From assembly GCA_038154245.1 (NCBI GenBank), contig JAYOZP010000008.1, positions 1,831-65,830 on the forward strand: DNA of 64,000 nt, read 5' to 3'. A model generated the notes under the pieces. The model had not been told where the DNA came from. It searched no databases and saw only the letters and a program-made list of their open reading frames with translations. A program made the position numbers and the translations under genes. Numbering within the stretch: the first letter of the stretch is position 1; the number at the start of each line of letters is the position of its first letter. Source of the DNA: Nitrospinales bacterium. GTDB taxonomy: Bacteria > Nitrospinota > Nitrospinia > Nitrospinales > JAJDAT01. This document shows, piece after piece, positions 6,859 through 52,420 of the stretch.

Positions 6859-8547
6859 TTATCGAATAACCTTACCGCCAAAAATATCCAGAGCGTCTTG
6901 GATGATCTGAATATCGTTTTGGTAACTACCTCCATTATATTCCTTTAATTCGCCGTTGTCCCCATCAATATTTGGGGTCGCTACGGGTTCTTCAACTTTT
7001 AGAGTTTTTTTTTCAACCAACTCAAGGTTAATCGCAGATCCAAAAAACTTACCCACAGATTCTTTAATCAAATCAAAATTAGAAGGGTCTTTAATTCGTT
7101 GAAAGGTCATCGAGTCGCCCACGTTGATAGTAAGCTTAGCGGGAGATTCGAATTCAGCTCGGCAGGAACCTAAATAAAGTTTAAAATTCGGCTTCTTTTT
7201 ACAAACATCGGCAACAGCTTCGCGCCATCTCGATTCCCAATCGTCAATTTTTGGGGCCGACTTAAGCGATTCCGCAGGCTCTTCGACTCTATCGGCCACA
7301 GGCTCGGACTTAATCTCCGCCGGTTCAGAGTTTGGCTGAGATGGAACCGGTTTCGCTGGCGGTTGACTTACCGGCGCAGTCTGAACGCTTGGCGCTGGAG
7401 AGGGCAAATCATCTTCCATTTGATTAATCTGCTCGATCATTGCTCCAATATCGTGGTAAGGCCGGACGTCTGTTAAACGAATCGCCGCCATTTCGAATAT
7501 GAGTTGTGGCAACGGACTTCGCCGCATATCTTCTTCCGCTTTAGCCAAAACCGAGAACGCTTGTCGGAGTCGGTCCGTTTCCAATTTCTCGGCGAGCGCT
7601 TTAACCTCGGAAGTGTCGCGACCCGAAGCGTTAGACAAAATCTCCGCTTTTGCGCCGGATTGTATCAAAATCAAATCTCGCACAAATTCCATCAGGTCGC
7701 GGCAAAAAATATTGAGATCTTTTCCCGACCGAACGATTTCTTGAATCTGCTCGATCAAACCCGGAGCGTTGCCATCGGCCAAGTTTTTGCAAAACCTCTC
7801 CAAAACATCTTGAGATACCGCTCCTAAAACCGTTTCGACCGCTTCGGAATTGATTTCCGATCCACAAAATGCAATGGCCTGGTCCAAAAAACTCTGCGAG
7901 TCGCGCATACTGCCGCCGCCGCTTTTCGCGATTTGTCGTAAACTGGTGGGATCGACCGAAATACCTTCCTCTTTACAAATCAAACCCAACTGCTCGGCAA
8001 CTTGTTCTCGGGATAGGGCCTTGTATTCAAAACATTGGCACCGGGAAAGGATCGTTTCCGGAATTTTTATCAATTCAGTGGTGGCAAAAATAAAGACCAC
8101 TTTCGGAGGAGGCTCTTCCAGAGTTTTCAAAAGAGCGTTGAACGCGCTCTTCGAAAGCATGTGAACTTCGTCGATCACATAGACTTTATAGCGACAAGAA
8201 GTGGCCGAATATTTCACTTTTTCAATCAGTTCTCGAACTTCGGCGACGCCGTTGTTGGACGCCCCGTCGATTTCCGTAACGTCCATACTGCGTCCCATTT
8301 TGATCTCTTCGCAGTTGACGCAATTGTCGCAAGGTTCAACAGCGGGACCTTTTTCACAGTTCAACGCTTTGGCAAATACCCTAGCCGTCGTGGTTTTTCC
8401 AACGCCGCGCGCGCCAGAGAATAAGTAGGCGTGCGCTACACGATCAGATTTAATTGCGTTTTGCAGAGTACGGATAATCGGTTCCTGTCCGACCATTTGG
8501 GCGAACTTTTGAGGTCGCCATTTAAGAGCGGAAACCTGAAAATCCAT
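6859..8547 (-). CDS. dnaX: DNA polymerase III subunit gamma/tau
   Basis: Walker A GARGVGKTT, DEVHML, a zinc module CDNCVNC, and the SRC sensor motif. Confidence 0.93.
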   Translation of the reverse strand: MDFQVSALKWRPQKFAQMVGQEPIIRTLQNAIKSDRVAHAYLFSGARGVGKTTTARVFAKALNCEKGPAVEPCDNCVNCEEIKMGRSMDVTEIDGASNNGVAEVRELIEKVKYSATSCRYKVYVIDEVHMLSKSAFNALLKTLEEPPPKVVFIFATTELIKIPETILSRCQCFEYKALSREQVAEQLGLICKEEGISVDPTSLRQIAKSGGGSMRDSQSFLDQAIAFCGSEINSEAVETVLGAVSQDVLERFCKNLADGNAPGLIEQIQEIVRSGKDLNIFCRDLMEFVRDLILIQSGAKAEILSNASGRDTSEVKALAEKLETDRLRQAFSVLAKAEEDMRRSPLPQLIFEMAAIRLTDVRPYHDIGAMIEQINQMEDDLPSPAPSVQTAPVSQPPAKPVPSQPNSEPAEIKSEPVADRVEEPAESLKSAPKIDDWESRWREAVADVCKKKPNFKLYLGSCRAEFESPAKLTINVGDSMTFQRIKDPSNFDLIKESVGKFFGSAINLELVEKKTLKVEEPVATPNIDGDNGELKEYNGGSYQNDIQIIQDALDIFGGKVIR

Positions 8548-8605: not shown

Positions 8606-8726
8606 TAAAGGCAGAATTGCTGGGGAATCTCACAGCGCACAAAACGGATTGCTGCCGCTGCTTCCTTCCGGACCTGACGGGGTTCACAAAGGTCTCGCCG
8701 CGCGAGGCCCAACAAAACTGCCAAAT
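8606..8726 (-). ncRNA. ffs: Signal recognition particle RNA (small, 4.5S-type)
   Basis: The minus strand reads ...GUCAGGUCCGGAAGGAAGCAGC..., the conserved SRP domain IV motif. It is embedded in a long hairpin closed by GGCAG (8718-8722) and CUGCC (8610-8614). It lies immediately upstream of dnaX, a common synteny. Confidence 0.8.
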
Positions 8727-8802
8727 ACAGTCAGTCGATTGAATTAGGGACAAATTATCATATCCCGCATCCACAATCTACTGAAAATATTTTGGGGAAG
8801 GC

Positions 8803-9159
8803 TCAACGTTTTGTTTTTGATTTAGGAATTTTCTTTTTAACCCTCTTTAATTCTTTACGAATTGTTTTAGTTTTCATATGTTGGTTACCAAAAGCTCTTT
8901 CTAATATTTTTAAAGCTTCTTCATAGAGCGGTTCAGCTTCTGAAAAACGTCCTTGGTCTTTATATAGATTTGCTAAGTTGCCTAGGGAAGTAGCCATCAT
9001 TGAATGCTCTTCTCCTAATAACTTTTTATCCAATTTTAAAGTTTCCTTAAAGAGCTTTTCAGCTTCTGAATAACGTTTTTGGTTTTTATATAGATTTGCT
9101 AAGTTGCCTAGGGAAGTAGCCATCATTGAATGCTCTTCTCCTAATAACTTTTTATCCAA
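8803..9159 (-). CDS. TPR-repeat fragment; out-of-frame continuation of the upstream TIR-NB-ARC-TPR gene
   Basis: 42-aa TPR units (ATSLGNLANLYKNQKRYSEAEKLFKETLKLDKKLLGEEHSMM). This frame is open upstream to 9255 and overlaps the end of the 754-aa ORF. Confidence 0.6.
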   Translation of the reverse strand: MDKKLLGEEHSMMATSLGNLANLYKNQKRYSEAEKLFKETLKLDKKLLGEEHSMMATSLGNLANLYKDQGRFSEAEPLYEEALKILERAFGNQHMKTKTIRKELKRVKKKIPKSKTKR

Positions 9160-9212
9160 TTTTAAAGTTTCCTTAAAGAGCTTTTCAGCTTCTGAATAAC
9201 GTTTTTGGTTTT
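8961..9212. repeat. Perfect 126-bp tandem duplication (2 copies), one TPR unit each
   Basis: 8961-9086 and 9087-9212 are identical base for base. Diverged further copies flank them. Confidence 0.95.
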
Positions 9213-11449
9213 TGTAAATTATGTAATGAGGTAGCCACTTTAGGATGCTCTTCTTTCAACAACTTCTTCCTCATTTCTAAAGCTTTTTTATAAAGAGTTT
9301 CGGCTTCTGAATATCTTTTTAAGCCCTCATATGAGCTAGCCAAATTATTTAATGAGTCGGAAATATCGACATGCTCTTCGCCATAAATATTTTTCATCAT
9401 GGTAAAAGCTTCTTTTGCCAGTGGCTTTGCATTTTTATAACGACATTGTAAGTCGTATATTCTGGCTAAATCGTTAAGACTTCGAGCAACATCTTTATGT
9501 TGCTTGCCAAAGATATTCTTCCGCATTTGAAGAGAATCTTTTAAAAGCGATTCTGATTTTTCATAATTTCCTTCCCAACTTTCTAAAGCTCCAAAATAAT
9601 TCAAAGAACGAGCTAATTCCGGATGTTCTCCTAAATAACAATTTTTATTAATATCGTGGGCCTTTTCTAGAAATTTTCTGGATTCTTCATAAACACCTAT
9701 TTGCATCAAATAATATCCAGTCTGATTACAAATTTGACCCAGTTCAGGAATCTCCAAATCATTATCAGAGGTCAAGTCGGTTAAAGCTTTTACGGAAGGA
9801 AATAATTGTCTGCAAAGATACCAGTTTTCGAACTTTTCAGCGTCTGGAAATGCCCCATTCAAAGCTTTAATCGCTTTTTCCGCCCAAGATTTAGGATCTT
9901 GTAACCCATCTCGAAAAACTTGTTGTGCCAAACGATGAATGCGCAAAGATTCTCCCCTTTGATTTTCTTTTTGATCATTCGATAATGATTCTCCACTTTG
10001 GGTTCTTTTTATTAAAGAAAATTTGCTTGCCTTCGTTATTAACCCATTCCATTTAAATTCGTTTCCAGCAACCTCTTTCAACCTTTGACTTAAATGCTCT
10101 TTTCCTTCTTTAAAAATTATTTCTGGAATAGAATCGGCATCAAAAAAAGCGCATAATCGAATTAACTCCCCCGCTTCTGGACTCTCTTTTTCAGTTTTTT
10201 CCAGAGACATTGCAAAAACTTGGGCTACCGACTGCGGATAATCTTGCGTTTCGGGTTTTTCTTTTAAAAAATCTTTTCCAAAGGCTTCAAAAAGTTCTAA
10301 AAATTTTTCAAGATTTATCCCTGTTTCCTTTATATACGCCCCAGCTTGTTCAAGGGCCAGGGGCAACCCATCAAATTTTTTATTAATCTCTTTAGCATTG
10401 TTCAATGCTTCTTCTGGAGCTTTTTCAATTTCTTCCTTTTCACCAATCACTCCTGAACGTCTCAATAACAATAAAATACCTTCATCTTCCATTTCTTCAA
10501 CGTGAAGTTCATGGGCTTGCCCAGTTGCTCTACGACGCGTGGTTATTAAAACGCTTCCTAAAAAACCAGTAGGGACAAACTCGTTAAAAAACTTCATGTC
10601 GTCGACATTATCAAGAATGAGCAACCAAACTCTTTCTCTCTTCATCCAGTTTTTAAAGGAACTAAAAATAATTTCTTGCTCCTGAGATTTTTTTCCAGGT
10701 AGATCAATAGCCTCCGCAATTTCGGCAACGCTTTTCGCCAACGAAGCTTCATTTTCCGCGTTTATCCACAAAATTGAGTTGTAGGAATCCTTGTGGCGGT
10801 AGGCATACTCAACTGCTATTTGAGTTTTACCGATCCCCCCTAAACCCGAAATGGCTTGTTTTTGCGGTTGGGTCAACGCAGCCTTTTCACCCGGCTTCAA
10901 AAAATCTTCGATTTGTTTGATAAGGTTTTCCCGACCCGTGAAATATTCATTGCGATGATAGGGAACGGTGAAGGCTTTTGGTTTTTTGGGTAATTCGGAT
11001 GGAGCAGTGGGATTGAAACTGTTTAGATGATTTACTAACTTTTGAAATTCTTCAGGTCTATAAATATTGTAGATATTGCCCTGAGAAAGAATCGGCGGCA
11101 CATGCTCTCTATCTTCATCGCTAAGAGTGATGGGAATGAATTTTTCATTTTTTCCAAACTTGTCGTAAATTTCTTGTGAAATATATGTGGCTTCTCTAGT
11201 AACTCCTTTTCCTTCTTCGATTTCTCCTGAAAATATCTTTCCATACCTTTCGTTGCATACAGTAAGGACAAAATCAGCATCTTTGATTTGCTGCTCCATC
11301 CACTTCAGCCATCCTTGTACTGGAACAATTTCGTACTGATCAATCCAGCAGTTAAAGTTTTCTAACCGAAGGCGCTCGGAAAATTCATGAACATTTTTTT
11401 TATGCTCTTCCGAGTCATGGCTATAACTGATGAAGGCTTTTGTGGGCAT
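9185..11449 (-). CDS. STAND NTPase: N-terminal TIR-like domain, NB-ARC/AAA P-loop, C-terminal TPR array (candidate defence protein)
   Basis: AFISYSHDSEEHKK...FVLTVCNERY (bacterial TIR/SEFIR-like start). Walker A GLGGIGKTQIAVEYAY, Walker B WLLILDNVDD, and VLITTRRR. KLC-like TPRs (ARSLNDLARIY, LNNLASSY). Confidence 0.8.
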   Translation of the reverse strand: MPTKAFISYSHDSEEHKKNVHEFSERLRLENFNCWIDQYEIVPVQGWLKWMEQQIKDADFVLTVCNERYGKIFSGEIEEGKGVTREATYISQEIYDKFGKNEKFIPITLSDEDREHVPPILSQGNIYNIYRPEEFQKLVNHLNSFNPTAPSELPKKPKAFTVPYHRNEYFTGRENLIKQIEDFLKPGEKAALTQPQKQAISGLGGIGKTQIAVEYAYRHKDSYNSILWINAENEASLAKSVAEIAEAIDLPGKKSQEQEIIFSSFKNWMKRERVWLLILDNVDDMKFFNEFVPTGFLGSVLITTRRRATGQAHELHVEEMEDEGILLLLRRSGVIGEKEEIEKAPEEALNNAKEINKKFDGLPLALEQAGAYIKETGINLEKFLELFEAFGKDFLKEKPETQDYPQSVAQVFAMSLEKTEKESPEAGELIRLCAFFDADSIPEIIFKEGKEHLSQRLKEVAGNEFKWNGLITKASKFSLIKRTQSGESLSNDQKENQRGESLRIHRLAQQVFRDGLQDPKSWAEKAIKALNGAFPDAEKFENWYLCRQLFPSVKALTDLTSDNDLEIPELGQICNQTGYYLMQIGVYEESRKFLEKAHDINKNCYLGEHPELARSLNYFGALESWEGNYEKSESLLKDSLQMRKNIFGKQHKDVARSLNDLARIYDLQCRYKNAKPLAKEAFTMMKNIYGEEHVDISDSLNNLASSYEGLKRYSEAETLYKKALEMRKKLLKEEHPKVATSLHNLQKPKTLFRS

Positions 11450-11599
11450 CTCTTTTGGCGTTAAAAAAAATTATTCGATATAGGAGATTGGCTTAAGATA
11501 CTTAAACACTTAGAGGAAATCAATGGTTAATCGGCTTTGGTGGGTTGCAACAGAGCTAGAAAAGGTAGTCTAGGCTTCGAGAGCCTCAGCCTGACATTT

Positions 11600-11651
11600 T
11601 TTTACCTAGATCCTTCGTCGCCTCTTCCGAGGCTTCTCCAGGATGACGTCG
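11600..11651 (+). repeat. REP-like element, copy A
   Basis: ttttacctagatccttcgtcgcc...aggatgacgtcg shares an identical 23-nt 5-prime part and the ggatgacg 3-prime part with copy B. The arms atcct/aggat are inverted. Confidence 0.7.
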
Positions 11652-11806: not shown

Positions 11807-12013
11807 CTAGGATTCGAAGTGGGTTGTGGAATTTGGAAGATTTTTTTCTTTTAATAATTCGATATGTTCTTCCATTCCCCATTTAGCTTTATAAAGACAA
11901 TCCTCTATGGAGTGACCAACGCCGCTAAAACCTTCTAACTCTTCGGAGTAAAATCCAAAAAAATCGGGATCTTCTTTAGCTTCAATAACTAAAGAATATT
12001 TAAGGTCGATCAT
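11807..12013 (-). CDS. hicB: HicB-like (UPF0150) antitoxin-family protein, orphan
   Basis: YSLVIEAKEDPDFFGFYSEELEGFSGVGHSIEDCLYKAKWGMEEHIELL matches the HicB N-terminal fold pattern. No HicA-like ORF is adjacent. Confidence 0.55.
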   Translation of the reverse strand: MIDLKYSLVIEAKEDPDFFGFYSEELEGFSGVGHSIEDCLYKAKWGMEEHIELLKEKNLPNSTTHFES

Positions 12014-12049: not shown

Positions 12050-12319
12050 CTATTTTTTGCGCCAGCCGTGGCGGTACATGCATTTTTCATAATGGCGAGT
12101 TTCTTTATCGCCAGGAGTGGTTCCTGAGTAAGTTAAATTATTAAAAGTCCCAGCGCGTTTTTTAGCGATCACGTTGCATTTTTCTTTATCTCTTTTAAAT
12201 GCACCGCTCCTTTTATTGCGGTTCGCGTTTTTTACATATTTGTATTCGTAAAAATTCGCGCAACTGGCCAGGAAAAACACGGCTATGATGCTGGCAAGAA
12301 TCCATTTCATTCCATTCAC
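12050..12319 (-). CDS. Small basic lipoprotein, unknown function
   Basis: Signal peptide with lipobox FLASC; 89 aa. Confidence 0.6.
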   Translation of the reverse strand: MNGMKWILASIIAVFFLASCANFYEYKYVKNANRNKRSGAFKRDKEKCNVIAKKRAGTFNNLTYSGTTPGDKETRHYEKCMYRHGWRKK

Positions 12320-12356: not shown

Positions 12357-12407
12357 TTTTACCTAGATCCTTCGTCGCCACTCTGGGGCTCCTCAAGGAT
12401 GACGGCG
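12357..12407 (+). repeat. REP-like element, copy B
   Basis: ttttacctagatccttcgtcgcc...aaggatgacggcg, in the same orientation as copy A. Confidence 0.7.
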
Positions 12408-13263: not shown

Positions 13264-14250
13264 ATGGGAACAGGATCCAATTTAATTGCGGTTGTCGAAC
13301 TCGACTCAAACGGTTTTAAATTCTCTAGCTTTGAAACCATTCACGCGGCAAAAAAACTTTCAAACGCAGACTCCGGCCCAGTAACAGCTGTGGCGTTTAC
13401 CGACAATAATAATCTGGATTGCGCAGAACTATTTCAATATGGAGCGGAAAAAGTTTTATTGCTAGTCAATCCTAGTTTTCAAACCTATAACCGATGGGCG
13501 ATGACTAAAGCTTTGGAATCGGTTATCGAACCCAACTCGACTATTCTAATGGGAGCCACCATTCACGGGAAAGAGCTGGCCGCGAGTTTATCTGCAGCTT
13601 TAGAAGCCGGATTAGCCTCGGATTGCATTGCGTTAGAACCTAACGAAAACGGTTCTTTAACAGCGCGCCGACCTGTCTATGCAGGAAAAGCTTATTCCTC
13701 TTTAACTTTAGAAGGCGATAAACATAGAATCTGCACTCTGCGAACAAATGTTTTTCGACCTGAAAATCCCGACATATCCCTTAGCGGCGAACCTGAAATT
13801 CAAGAAGTTTCTCCCACGAGCAATTTAGTAGAGAAAATTTTAGAAGTCTCTAAAAGCGGAGCTAAAAAAGATATTACCGAAGCTCGGATTGTCATCTCTG
13901 GTGGAATGGGAATGGGAGAACCAGGTAACTTTAAGTTGATAGAAGATTTGGCCGAAGTTTTGGACGCCGCTGTTGGAGCCAGCCGTAATGTGGTTGACGA
14001 AGGTTGGAGACCTTATTCCAACCAAGTTGGACAGACAGGTAGAACCGTTTCCCCGGATTTATATATCGCTTGCGGAATTTCTGGAGCTGTCCAACATATA
14101 GCGGGTATGTCCTCGTCCAAATGCATTGTCGCAATCAATAAAGATCCTTACGCTCCTATTTTTTCCATAGCCGATTATGGAATTGTTGGCGACGCGTTAG
14201 AAATTCTACCTCTCCTCACCGAAGAATTTCGCACCCTCTTAAAGTCCTAA
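13264..14250 (+). CDS. etfA: Electron transfer flavoprotein alpha subunit
   Basis: C-terminal FAD-binding region: VISGGMGMG, VGASRNVVDEGW, QVGQTGRTVSPDLYIACGISGAVQHIAGM. Confidence 0.9.
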   Translation: MGTGSNLIAVVELDSNGFKFSSFETIHAAKKLSNADSGPVTAVAFTDNNNLDCAELFQYGAEKVLLLVNPSFQTYNRWAMTKALESVIEPNSTILMGATIHGKELAASLSAALEAGLASDCIALEPNENGSLTARRPVYAGKAYSSLTLEGDKHRICTLRTNVFRPENPDISLSGEPEIQEVSPTSNLVEKILEVSKSGAKKDITEARIVISGGMGMGEPGNFKLIEDLAEVLDAAVGASRNVVDEGWRPYSNQVGQTGRTVSPDLYIACGISGAVQHIAGMSSSKCIVAINKDPYAPIFSIADYGIVGDALEILPLLTEEFRTLLKS

Positions 14251-14298: not shown

Positions 14299-14940
14299 GT
14301 GGAAGAAAAAATTCTAAAGACATTCCAGGAAGCAGGTCTTGCCTTTAAGACAAAAGAAACCAAGAACTTCGTAATAGAAAAAACCCTCGTCTTTTTAGAA
14401 GAGCTGAATAAATGGAGTTCTAAAATCAGCCTAATTTCTAAAGGCGACCAAGGACACATCCTAGAGCGACACTTTGTCGAATCCTTACAATATTCAAGAG
14501 GTCTGGAAAACGCTAGTCGATTGGTGGACATAGGCAGCGGCGCAGGGTTTCCTGGAATCCCTTTAAAAATATTTTTCCCAGAGTTAAATATAGTACTTGT
14601 TGAAAGCCAAAGGAAACGAGTTGGGTTTTTGGAATCTGTGCTAAGAACAATGAATTTACAGAATATTCAAGTAGCTTTTGGGCGTGCGGAAGATATAAGC
14701 CTTAAAAAAGAATTCCAAAAGTCATTCGATTCCGCAACATTTAGATCTGTAGCTTCGTTAGAAGAATGTTTATGCCTCGGAGAACCTTTTTTAAAAGAAG
14801 GGGGGAAAGTTTTAGTTAAAAAAGAGCCGGAGACTGAATTCCAAGGACATGGCCGCATGATTTTATCCGAGGAGTTCTCCTTTGAGACAACCGATAAAAG
14901 AAAATCCAAATTGATGGTCTTTAAAAAGCGTTCCACGTGA
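14299..14940 (+). CDS. rsmG: 16S rRNA (guanine527-N7)-methyltransferase
   Basis: GidB-like: LISKGDQGHILERHFVESL, VDIGSGAGFPGIPLKI. GTG start. Located upstream of parAB. Confidence 0.9.
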   Translation: MEEKILKTFQEAGLAFKTKETKNFVIEKTLVFLEELNKWSSKISLISKGDQGHILERHFVESLQYSRGLENASRLVDIGSGAGFPGIPLKIFFPELNIVLVESQRKRVGFLESVLRTMNLQNIQVAFGRAEDISLKKEFQKSFDSATFRSVASLEECLCLGEPFLKEGGKVLVKKEPETEFQGHGRMILSEEFSFETTDKRKSKLMVFKKRST

Positions 14941-52326: not shown

Positions 52327-52420
52327 ACTTTTTAACCAAAAAAGCCGTACAATCTAGAGACTACATTAAGGTCTTTTTTCTCAAATTGAGACGGGTTATC
52401 AATTACCGAGGAAACTCTTT

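Follow-up and report, generated by a model that had tools for sequence, protein, structure and literature searches.

bSEFIR was described as a single-gene defence system from Bacillus sp. NIO-1130 (Millman et al. 2022). According to the published account, NAD+ is depleted via the N-terminal SEFIR domain, the exchange D40A abolishes defence and phage escape mutants map to the capsid; within that account, NAD+ depletion on infection and protection against phage are known only for the Bacillus protein. Proteins were included in the family by its authors when the N-terminal SEFIR match was stronger than the TIR match.

A related gene is located on the minus strand of the window, i.e. the whole stretch of 64,000 nucleotides from a Nitrospinales bacterium analysed here. 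It had been annotated initially as one gene at 8803-11449(-). Instead, two open reading frames of 754 and 118 amino acids are found which are parted by a frameshift, and the encoded protein is probably a damaged member of the already described bSEFIR family.

Domain architecture

The larger reading frame and the repaired sensor region comprise the following elements:

9185..11449, minus strand: 754-aa open reading frame encoding SEFIR, NB-ARC, winged-helix/DUF7779 region, four whole TPR units and the first helix of unit 5
11018..11440, minus strand: SEFIR domain, residues 4-144 (Pfam, profile search against the PDB, Foldseek)
11339-11341, minus strand: codon of D37, a residue kept here and in 113/113 homologs
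11192-11194, minus strand: codon of E86, likewise kept here and in 113/113 homologs, on predicted helix 81-96
10199..10867, minus strand: NB-ARC NTPase, residues 195-417 (Pfam 46.6 bits, cutoff 23.5)
10823-10846, minus strand: Walker A motif GLGGIGKT, read from the translation
10598-10624, minus strand: Walker B motif LLILDNVDD, read from the translation
9896..10195, minus strand: DUF7779/winged-helix region (Pfam, residues 419-518) with the MHD-like IHRL, H505 being invariant
8803..9739, minus strand: TPR sensor array, as repaired, of seven 42-aa (126-nt) units and a basic C-terminal tail

The 754-residue protein is identical to the database protein P0001, and its AF2 model has a mean pLDDT of 90.4. 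The peptides from which the initial annotation had derived its domain order, AFISYSHDSEEHKKNV, DADFVLTVCNERY, GLGGIGKTQ and LLILDNVDD, all occur in the translation of 9185-11449(-). The N-terminus, described there as TIR-like, belongs to the SEFIR class rather than to the canonical TIR domains. In Pfam, SEFIR is matched at residues 4-142 with 61.2 bits (1.8e-16) and TIR_2 at residues 6-127 with 50.7 bits (3.1e-13), the latter above its cutoff but below the SEFIR score, as in the bSEFIR proteins delimited by the rule given above. Profile searches against the PDB give the same ranking, with BcSEFIR at 4.8e-22, Act1 at 5.4e-14 and, as the best TIR domain, BtTir at 3.7e-5. For the AF2 model of the SEFIR domain (pLDDT 88.9), Act1/IL-17R and prokaryotic SEFIR structures are ranked first by Foldseek, followed by the NADase TIR domains of SPARTA, AbTir, TIR-STING and SARM1 (1e-4 to 1e-3).

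Alignment for the conserved glutamate, proposed initially as a check on the effector domain, reveals the family-invariant E86 together with D37. D37 would correspond to D40 of Bacillus bSEFIR. Because E86 is invariant and lies where the long helix αC begins, it appears to be the counterpart of the TIR catalytic glutamate. The canonical W-x-x-x-E motif is absent around E86, where the protein reads GKGVTRE and the residue four positions earlier is not a tryptophan. A gapless alignment to BtTir places the TIR glutamate near E78/E79 instead, alignments in this segment being unreliable. At position 77, where 83% of relatives have Glu, the present protein has Ile, with E76, E78 and E79 on either side.

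The NB-ARC module and TPR array proposed initially are both present (Pfam NB-ARC 3.5e-12, TPR_12/TPR_10 2e-31 and 3.5e-28). Besides the Walker motifs, the NB-ARC motifs TTR (ITTR), GLPLAL and the MHD-like IHRL can be recognized. The invariant NB-ARC columns G202, G205, G207, K208 and D280 are kept in the homolog alignment, and Walker A, Walker B, GLPL and the MHD-like histidine, all invariant in the family, are present as well. Foldseek searches with the full-length model retrieve NRC3 (3.6e-11), Apaf-1 (7.9e-11), CED-4 (4.6e-10) and ZAR1 (2e-9), with further matches to NRC4, Sr35 and Avs3. By Pfam score, motifs and fold match, the protein is a member of the NB-ARC (AP-ATPase) clade of STAND NTPases.

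Within the TPR array, units 5-7 contain half-units which are 100% identical at the DNA level over stretches of 55-75 nt. The ortholog P0003 possesses only four TPR units plus the tail, and P0002, P0003 and the sequence after repair have the conserved C-terminal capping unit with its basic tail in common. In comparison with the ortholog in locus L001, dN/dS is 0.10 for SEFIR, 0.06 for NB-ARC and 0.20 and 0.46 for the TPR region before and after the lesion, respectively, these values being rough because dS is saturated (>1).

Comparison with related proteins

The PADLOC search suggested in the initial annotation assigns the protein to bSEFIR (PDLC03957, 5.1e-39, 133 bits, residues 3-331 on profile positions 39-335 of 412). 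Thus, an effector/NB-ARC STAND/TPR protein with a putative NADase-type effector, as initially postulated, is retained, while the effector is a SEFIR domain and not a TIR domain proper. Like Bacillus bSEFIR, the gene stands alone and has no conserved partner. It keeps the Asp and Glu that are invariant among its homologs and that would correspond to the required residues of the Bacillus protein, and the profile match spans the SEFIR domain and the P-loop half but not the C-terminal sensor. Unlike Bacillus bSEFIR, the gene resides in the distant phylum Nitrospinota and its reading frame is broken.

With the Avs/AVAST proteins (Avs3, PDB code 8DGC; SIR2-, TIR- and NIR-Avs) the protein shares the logic of effector, STAND NTPase and C-terminal repeats, including a TPR sensor and the above match of the full-length model to Avs3, but its NTPase is of the NB-ARC type found in Apaf-1 and plant NLRs and carries a DUF7779 region. 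At E<=0.01 no Avs model of PADLOC was matched; apart from bSEFIR, the scan gave only a generic TPR model. Act1/TRAF3IP2, the IL-17 receptors and B. cereus SEFIR (5Y8E/5Y8F) provide the best N-terminal matches in both sequence and structure; the eukaryotic SEFIR proteins, however, are adaptors in helical assemblies which are not known as NADases, and lack an NB-ARC-TPR fusion. The flavodoxin-like STIR fold is common to the NADases SPARTA TIR-APAZ, AbTir, TIR-STING and SARM1, from which the present domain differs by a TIR match below the SEFIR match and by an additional helix peculiar to SEFIR domains (67-73) ahead of αC. Plant TIR-NB-ARC-TPR (TNP) proteins have their three parts arranged as in the present protein. 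The module of NB-ARC and TPR_12/TPR_10 is also present in the FxSxx-COOH TPR protein (NF040586) and in AfsR-type SARP-NB-ARC-TPR proteins; both lack a SEFIR domain, whereas the present locus lacks Fxs genes and a DNA-binding domain.

More than 4,600 proteins are matched when the SEFIR–NB-ARC portion is used as query, and nearly all of the best 120 of these have the same domain set. A metagenome scan for close orthologs yielded only one relative, with 23% identity. Since the family is known and its matches are this numerous, the conceptual gain is small, SEFIR-STAND defence proteins having already been described. What the locus adds is a record of the family from Nitrospinota, a group of uncultured marine nitrite oxidisers for which phage-host data are scarce.

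Gene neighbourhood and distribution among relatives

The flanking core genes are those named initially, namely dnaX (6859-8547), etfA (13264-14250), rsmG (14299-14940) and the SRP RNA. The immediate surroundings of the gene are:

8615..8714, minus strand: ffs, small SRP RNA (Rfam 63.5 bits), 89 nt downstream of the gene
11472..11535, minus strand: upstream region, presumed promoter/leader, conserved in L001 and kept at the empty site of L006
11807..12013, minus strand: orf68, small accessory ORF of 68 aa upstream of the gene, intact here
12050..12319, minus strand: orf89, predicted to encode a small lipoprotein; conserved in every relative, it delimits the variable site on the left as a fixed border

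On the right, this site is likewise bounded at a fixed point by the conserved block upstream of ffs, which starts at about position 8792. Scans for promoters and terminators gave counts at chance level. The surroundings in the window and in L001 have only the core genes orf89, ffs and dnaX in common.

Among six related Nitrospinia loci, the gene is present between orf89 and ffs in two, a deletion scar is found in one (L006) and the gene is lacking in three. The closest relative as judged by flanking genes, L007, is without it between orf89 and ffs. In L006, the empty site still holds the upstream region of the gene, joined directly to the final ~27-30 nt of the coding sequence, which speaks for ancestral presence and repeated loss rather than for a recent insertion. 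The pattern of presence, absence and scar indicates that the gene is accessory and being lost, and not part of a mobile island; orthologs are not syntenic core genes across the lineage, the gene being missing from the orthologous site in four relatives. Taken together, one locus displays a natural series, intact in L001, frameshifted in the window, reduced to a scar in L006 and replaced or absent in L005, L007 and L008, which illustrates the decay of a chromosomal defence gene.

Sequences at the site in the relatives differ. L005 carries a 345-aa ORF with weak coiled-coil-type PADLOC matches only, L008 contains fragments with generic P-loop matches only, and the region in L007 is full of stops. 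A frameshifted remnant of orf68 is present in L007, and orf68 is absent from L001, L005, L006 and L008.

The accessory nature implied by the term defence islet in the initial annotation holds for the gene, but the presumed islet consists of only this gene and one 68-aa ORF, with no mobility or other defence genes. The ORF in question, orf68, was proposed to be an orphan HicB; no Pfam, NCBIfam or PADLOC match was obtained, and the only hint is a HicB-like PHROG with E=0.13. Pfam at E<=10 returns only noise, no relative is found in the PDB, the sequence is dissimilar to the HicB beside the paralog P0008, and no HicA-like ORF is adjacent. The REP-like repeats amount to a ~52-nt sequence present twice (11600-11651 and 12357-12407), with no third copy in 64 kb. 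A reading as REP or MITE elements is not borne out either, the 20-nt core occurring twice in 64 kb and the hairpin z-scores of -0.5 to -1.3 being not significant.

Interruption of the reading frame

The frameshift originates from a short deletion within the TPR array:

9214..9215 (after 9215), minus strand: lesion, 11-nt deletion within the 126-nt TPR tandem array, unit 5
9185..9187, minus strand: premature TGA stop, product of the 11-nt frameshift
8803..9159, minus strand: 118-aa open reading frame with TTG start, the orphaned C-terminal 2.3 TPR units and tail of the original gene

On the gene strand the lesion reads ...CATAATTTA|CAAAAACC..., the missing sequence being most plausibly GCAAATCTATA, and the junction is spanned by ...CATAATTTACAAAAACC.... 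Spacing of the TPR units is 126, 126 and 115 nt, thus 11 nt short at the lesion, in agreement with the alignment of the units. Beyond the lesion, the 754-aa frame continues for nine out-of-frame residues before TGA, while the original frame is open from 9214 down to 8803. Restoring the 11 nt results in a single ORF of 885 aa which is colinear with the intact 877-aa ortholog P0002. Missing from the frameshifted product are ~2.7 TPR units at the end of the array as well as the conserved tail behind them.

Could the frameshift be an artefact of sequencing or assembly in a near-identical tandem repeat, the real gene being intact? The identical 55-75-nt stretches of units 5-7 speak for this, as does the fact that three Logan contigs break in the region, which is therefore hard to assemble. 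A mis-join of repeats, however, would be in register, i.e. by multiples of 126 nt, and not by 11 nt with a novel junction. Moreover, the sequence of the window recurs unchanged in the NCBI assembly, and the junction k-mers are found in three independent Logan assemblies from separate runs and read sets, each contig ending exactly 31 nt (= k) past the junction, as expected where a genuine junction is followed by repeated sequence. An artefact is hence quite improbable. A real but harmless lesion, leaving an allele that works either as a shorter sensor of 754 aa with ~4.3 TPR units or as a split sensor together with the 118-aa fragment, seems rather unlikely. The 754-aa product might retain activity given that P0003 naturally has four TPR units and tail; relatives of only 605-660 aa, in which TPR matches are few or absent, occur on long contigs (P0025, P0032, P0010), and the catalytic and switch motifs are all intact. 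On the other hand, the product is devoid of the capping unit and basic tail and ends in out-of-frame residues, the TTG start of the 118-aa ORF has no visible ribosome-binding site, and a deletion of 11 nt is not a reversible switch.

It is very improbable that the gene never served immunity and instead encodes a SEFIR scaffold or signalling STAND regulator, or the TPR component of an FxSxx-COOH RiPP system. The NCBIfam model FxSxx_TPR NF040586 scores 305.8 bits at a cutoff of 300, the closest solved NB-ARC by sequence is that of the transcriptional regulator AfsR, and SEFIR domains were first proposed as protein-interaction modules. Yet the FxSxx model covers residues 165-745 only, i.e. NB-ARC and TPR, with SEFIR outside, and a PGAP-style name 'FxSxx-COOH system TPR protein' would mislabel the gene. 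No radical-SAM-like ORF is encoded in the 64 kb, in which no ORF of at least 110 aa has CxxxCxxC within its first 200 residues, and the neighbours dnaX, ffs, orf68, orf89 and etfA, which are housekeeping genes apart from the accessory orf68, include none of FxsA, FxsB and FxsC. A DNA-binding domain is absent, and patchy distribution, tandem paralogs, a fast-evolving sensor and frequent loss fit a defence gene.

Proposed mechanism and possible turnover of the site

Most likely, the chromosome of this Nitrospinia bacterium carries a single-gene anti-phage system of the bSEFIR type that was inactivated recently; split by an 11-base deletion, it is an ordinary, probably recently disabled defence gene. 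In the intact protein, the C-terminal TPR array would act as the sensor, the NB-ARC ATPase as the oligomerisation switch and the N-terminal SEFIR domain as the effector. By analogy with Bacillus bSEFIR and with Avs and NLR proteins, recognition of a phage component by the TPR array would release autoinhibition, nucleotide exchange in NB-ARC would lead to oligomerisation, and the clustered SEFIR domains would hydrolyse NAD+, whereby infection is aborted. Loss of the terminal repeats presumably inactivated the gene, which may have been caught during the loss that already removed it from sister lineages.

On a broader scale, it is a tentative and rather doubtful proposition that the orf89|ffs site constitutes a Nitrospinia-wide hotspot of immune-gene turnover without mobile-element machinery, and that the TPR sensor diversifies by recombination at the level of units, with four versus seven units in orthologs and identical half-units in units 5-7. 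At such a hotspot immune genes may be swapped, degraded and deleted. More speculatively, the shortened protein with SEFIR and NB-ARC might operate together with the 118-aa TPR remnant as a split sensor. The 11-nt out-of-register deletion itself may be a by-product of such unit-level recombination in the TPR array.

Gene structure and domain organization

The initial annotation placed a single TIR-NB-ARC-TPR gene at 8803-11449. ORF calling resolves the minus strand of this interval into two reading frames instead, the longer of which contains all peptides that had been quoted:

9185-11449, (-), ORF of 754 aa
8803-9159, (-), ORF of 118 aa with a TTG start

Pfam matches of the 754-aa ORF
Domain; residues; E-value
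SEFIR; 4-142; 1.8e-16
TIR_2; 6-127; 3.1e-13
NB-ARC; 195-417; 3.5e-12
DUF7779; 419-518; 2.1e-10
TPR_12 / TPR_10; C-terminal; 2e-31 / 3.5e-28

The NB-ARC domain and the TPR array are thus confirmed, whereas the N-terminus is a SEFIR rather than a TIR domain; the 118-aa ORF matches nothing but TPR_12/TPR_10. In an alignment of 63 sequences, Walker A (G202, G205, G207, K208), Walker B (D280), the TTR and GLPLAL motifs and the MHD-like His505 show no variation, and all of them are intact in the window protein, the nearest solved NB-ARC of which is by sequence that of AfsR. The full-length AlphaFold2 model (pLDDT 90.4) matches the plant NLR resistosomes NRC3, NRC4, Sr35 and ZAR1 as well as Apaf-1 and CED-4 in Foldseek, with kinesin-light-chain TPRs and Avs3 also among the matches.

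The effector domain

The assignment of the effector domain as SEFIR, not canonical TIR, follows from the ranking in Pfam as well as in single-sequence, profile and structural comparisons. A single-sequence search with residues 1-184 retrieved the Bacillus cereus SEFIR domain (BcSEFIR, 5Y8F/5Y8E; 1.5e-11) and Act1 (5e-5) as best solved relatives, the best TIR domain reaching only 0.035. A 22-sequence profile gave 4.8e-22 for BcSEFIR, 5.4e-14 for Act1, 3.7e-5 for BtTir and 1e-3 to 2e-2 for PdTIR, AbTir, Cat1 and RPS4. Foldseek with the AlphaFold2 model of residues 1-165 (pLDDT 88.9) ranks Act1 and IL-17R SEFIR chains and 5Y8E/5Y8F at the top, followed by SPARTA TIR-APAZ, BtTir, AbTir, TIR-STING, MyD88 and SARM1. 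Between βC and the long helix αC (81-96) the model carries an additional short helix (67-73).

Among 113 homologous domains S8, Y9, D37 and E86 are invariant and F6, I7, H11, D12, H16, W50, Y69, G80, G82, N101, F104, P106 and P118 nearly so; the window protein retains every one of these residues. Located in the first turns of αC, E86 aligns with the glutamate of the BcSEFIR GVGTE motif and may be the counterpart of the TIR catalytic glutamate. A gapless sequence alignment with BtTir, however, places the TIR glutamate closer to E78/E79 than to E86.

Relation to known systems

PADLOC returned a known defence family: the one specific match is bSEFIR (PDLC03957, 5.1e-39), a published single-gene anti-phage system from Bacillus, with no match of the window protein to Avs or other STAND models. 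The alignment (residues 3-331 on profile positions 39-335) covers the SEFIR domain and the nucleotide-binding subdomain. The preprint defining the SEFIR system selected proteins whose N-terminal SEFIR match is better than the TIR match, a relation also found in the window protein, and demonstrated defence against phi29 that is abolished by D40A. Later summaries describe the system as a single protein whose N-terminal SEFIR domain depletes NAD+ to ADPR and nicotinamide. Later work reported that the phage NARP1 pathway counters the system; escape mutants are located in the phage capsid. The architecture is very common, with 4,616 of 8,000 scored candidates matching at E<=1e-3 and the same Pfam set in nearly all of the best 120 of these.

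The NCBIfam equivalog FxSxx_TPR (NF040586, FxSxx-COOH system TPR protein) also matches, at 305.8 against a cutoff of 300. This name would be a mis-annotation, as the match is confined to residues 165-745 and no radical-SAM-like ORF is found within the 64-kb window. Homologs in Methanoperedens MAGs already carry the name, and NF040586 likely over-annotates NB-ARC-TPR proteins systematically.

A frameshift in the TPR array

The C-terminal region is built of tandem TPR units of 126 nt (42 aa) each. From one start to the next, the last units are 126, 126 and finally 115 nt apart, and in an alignment of the units, unit 5 is 11 nt short. On the gene strand the deletion junction lies between ...CATAATTTA and CAAAAACC..., after window position 9215; the frame continues for nine residues to a TGA at 9185-9187. 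Adding back 11 nt yields one ORF of 885 aa, in which seven TPR units are followed by a basic tail; it is colinear with P0002, the closest homolog that is intact (877 aa, likewise with seven units and tail; 72% identity over 861 residues).

Since a repeat collapse would be in register rather than an 11-nt deletion, an assembly artefact is unlikely, and for the sampled population the frameshift is taken to be real. NCBI and three Logan assemblies (SRR26337559, SRR26337550, SRR26337551) contain the 754-aa product in identical form. The contigs of these three independent assemblies match the window at 100% identity and contain the junction, each ending exactly 31 nt past it, one base after the premature stop, as is expected of a k=31 de Bruijn assembly where a real, unique junction meets a repeat. 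The Logan "754-aa gene" is complete only by the coincidence of frameshift stop and assembly break.

Selection and functional state

dN/dS between the window and L001, the related locus encoding P0002 (rough values, as dS is saturated at >1)
SEFIR; 0.10
NB-ARC / winged helix; 0.06
TPR before lesion; 0.20
TPR after lesion; 0.46
dnaX (control); 0.10

Through most of the window-L001 divergence purifying selection has clearly acted on effector and switch, from which it follows that the frameshift is recent. The sensor is the fastest-evolving part of the gene and varies by entire units, the ortholog P0003 having four units and the tail. At 8908-9274 units 5-7 share half-units identical at the DNA level (the 3' halves of units 5 and 6, and the 5' 75 nt of units 6 and 7), whereas the corresponding units of P0002 are mutually diverged; together these are signs of recent conversion within the gene and of changing unit number in the sensor. 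With a dS of ~1.3 (8803-11449 against L001:10001-12634) the gene is about twice as diverged at synonymous sites as the adjacent dnaX (~0.63), which may reflect a weaker constraint on codons, or alleles that are older or were exchanged.

Most likely the locus encodes an NLR-like abortive-infection sensor of the bSEFIR type and was disabled only very recently. A minority possibility is a 754-aa product that remains functional: its unit count is about that of P0003, but it is devoid of the conserved capping unit and the tail, and no translation signals are evident for the 118-aa ORF. The gene is a damaged new addition to an already known family; the initial observation is partly confirmed and its interpretation partly supported.

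The orf89-ffs site and its neighbourhood

8615-8714, (-), ffs, small SRP RNA gene (Rfam, 63.5 bits)
11600-11651 and 12357-12407, ~52-nt direct repeat flanking orf68-orf89, core TACCTAGATCCTTCGTCGCC
11807-12013, (-), orf68, small ORF
12050-12319, (-), orf89, small predicted lipoprotein gene

The described core-gene setting stands, with ffs, dnaX, ybaB, recR, ispF and dxr on one side and etfA, rsmG, parA and parB on the other. As for the proposed defence islet, neither an integrase nor a flanking target duplication nor any further defence gene is present, and in GC content (0.34-0.39) the gene falls only slightly below its surroundings. The supposed orphan HicB, orf68, has no significant match, and the REP-like repeats reduce to the two ~52-nt copies, absent elsewhere in the 64 kb and without significant folding; L001 has one copy (9698-9755).

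Relatives retrieved with DnaX are Nitrospinota/Nitrospinia MAGs. In all five related loci compared with the window orf89 and ffs-dnaX are conserved, while the content between them differs:

Content between orf89 and ffs
Window; orf68 and the frameshifted gene
L001 (JGI, 1.18-Mb contig); intact 877-aa ortholog
L005; unrelated 345-aa ORF on the opposite strand, L005:8441-9478 (-), coiled-coil/TM-like, weak LeoC/ZorA-type PADLOC matches
L006; ~300 nt
L007; ~630 nt with a frameshifted orf68 remnant (L007:9200-9832)
L008; 2.2 kb of broken ORFs including a P-loop fragment, GPEGSGKTK (L008:300-2540)

The gene is accessory, and the site behaves as a turnover hotspot. The distribution is patchy, as the gene is absent from L007, which in its flanking proteins is the closest relative (DnaX 89%, EtfA 91%, ParB 94.5%), but present in the more distant L001. 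In L006 the conserved upstream region (homologous to window 11472-11535) runs directly into a stretch homologous to the final ~27-30 nt of the coding sequence, behind which comes the block upstream of ffs. The arrangement resembles a deletion scar, according to which the gene would be ancestral at the site and later lost; the tract being short and A-rich, the scar is suggestive, not proof.

Paralogs and further observations

The family is multi-copy in the Nitrospinia clade. MAG OFTM166, the source of L005, lacks the gene at the ffs site and has two tandem SEFIR-NB-ARC-TPR paralogs elsewhere (L010:7633-9618 and L010:10001-12469; 661 and 822 aa, at 46-48% identity to the window protein), adjoining priA and a SpoU methylase gene. 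Another large contig of the L001 metagenome encodes the paralog P0008 (921 aa). Its surroundings (L011:7917-13548) resemble a defence island: SIR2 and HD-domain genes flank it on one side, and a HicB-HicA pair flanks it on the other.

Elsewhere in the window, a giant ORF of >3,860 aa (52420-64000, (+)) runs past the window end; its N-terminal TPS (two-partner secretion) domain and DUF5649 repeats identify it as a filamentous-haemagglutinin-like exoprotein.
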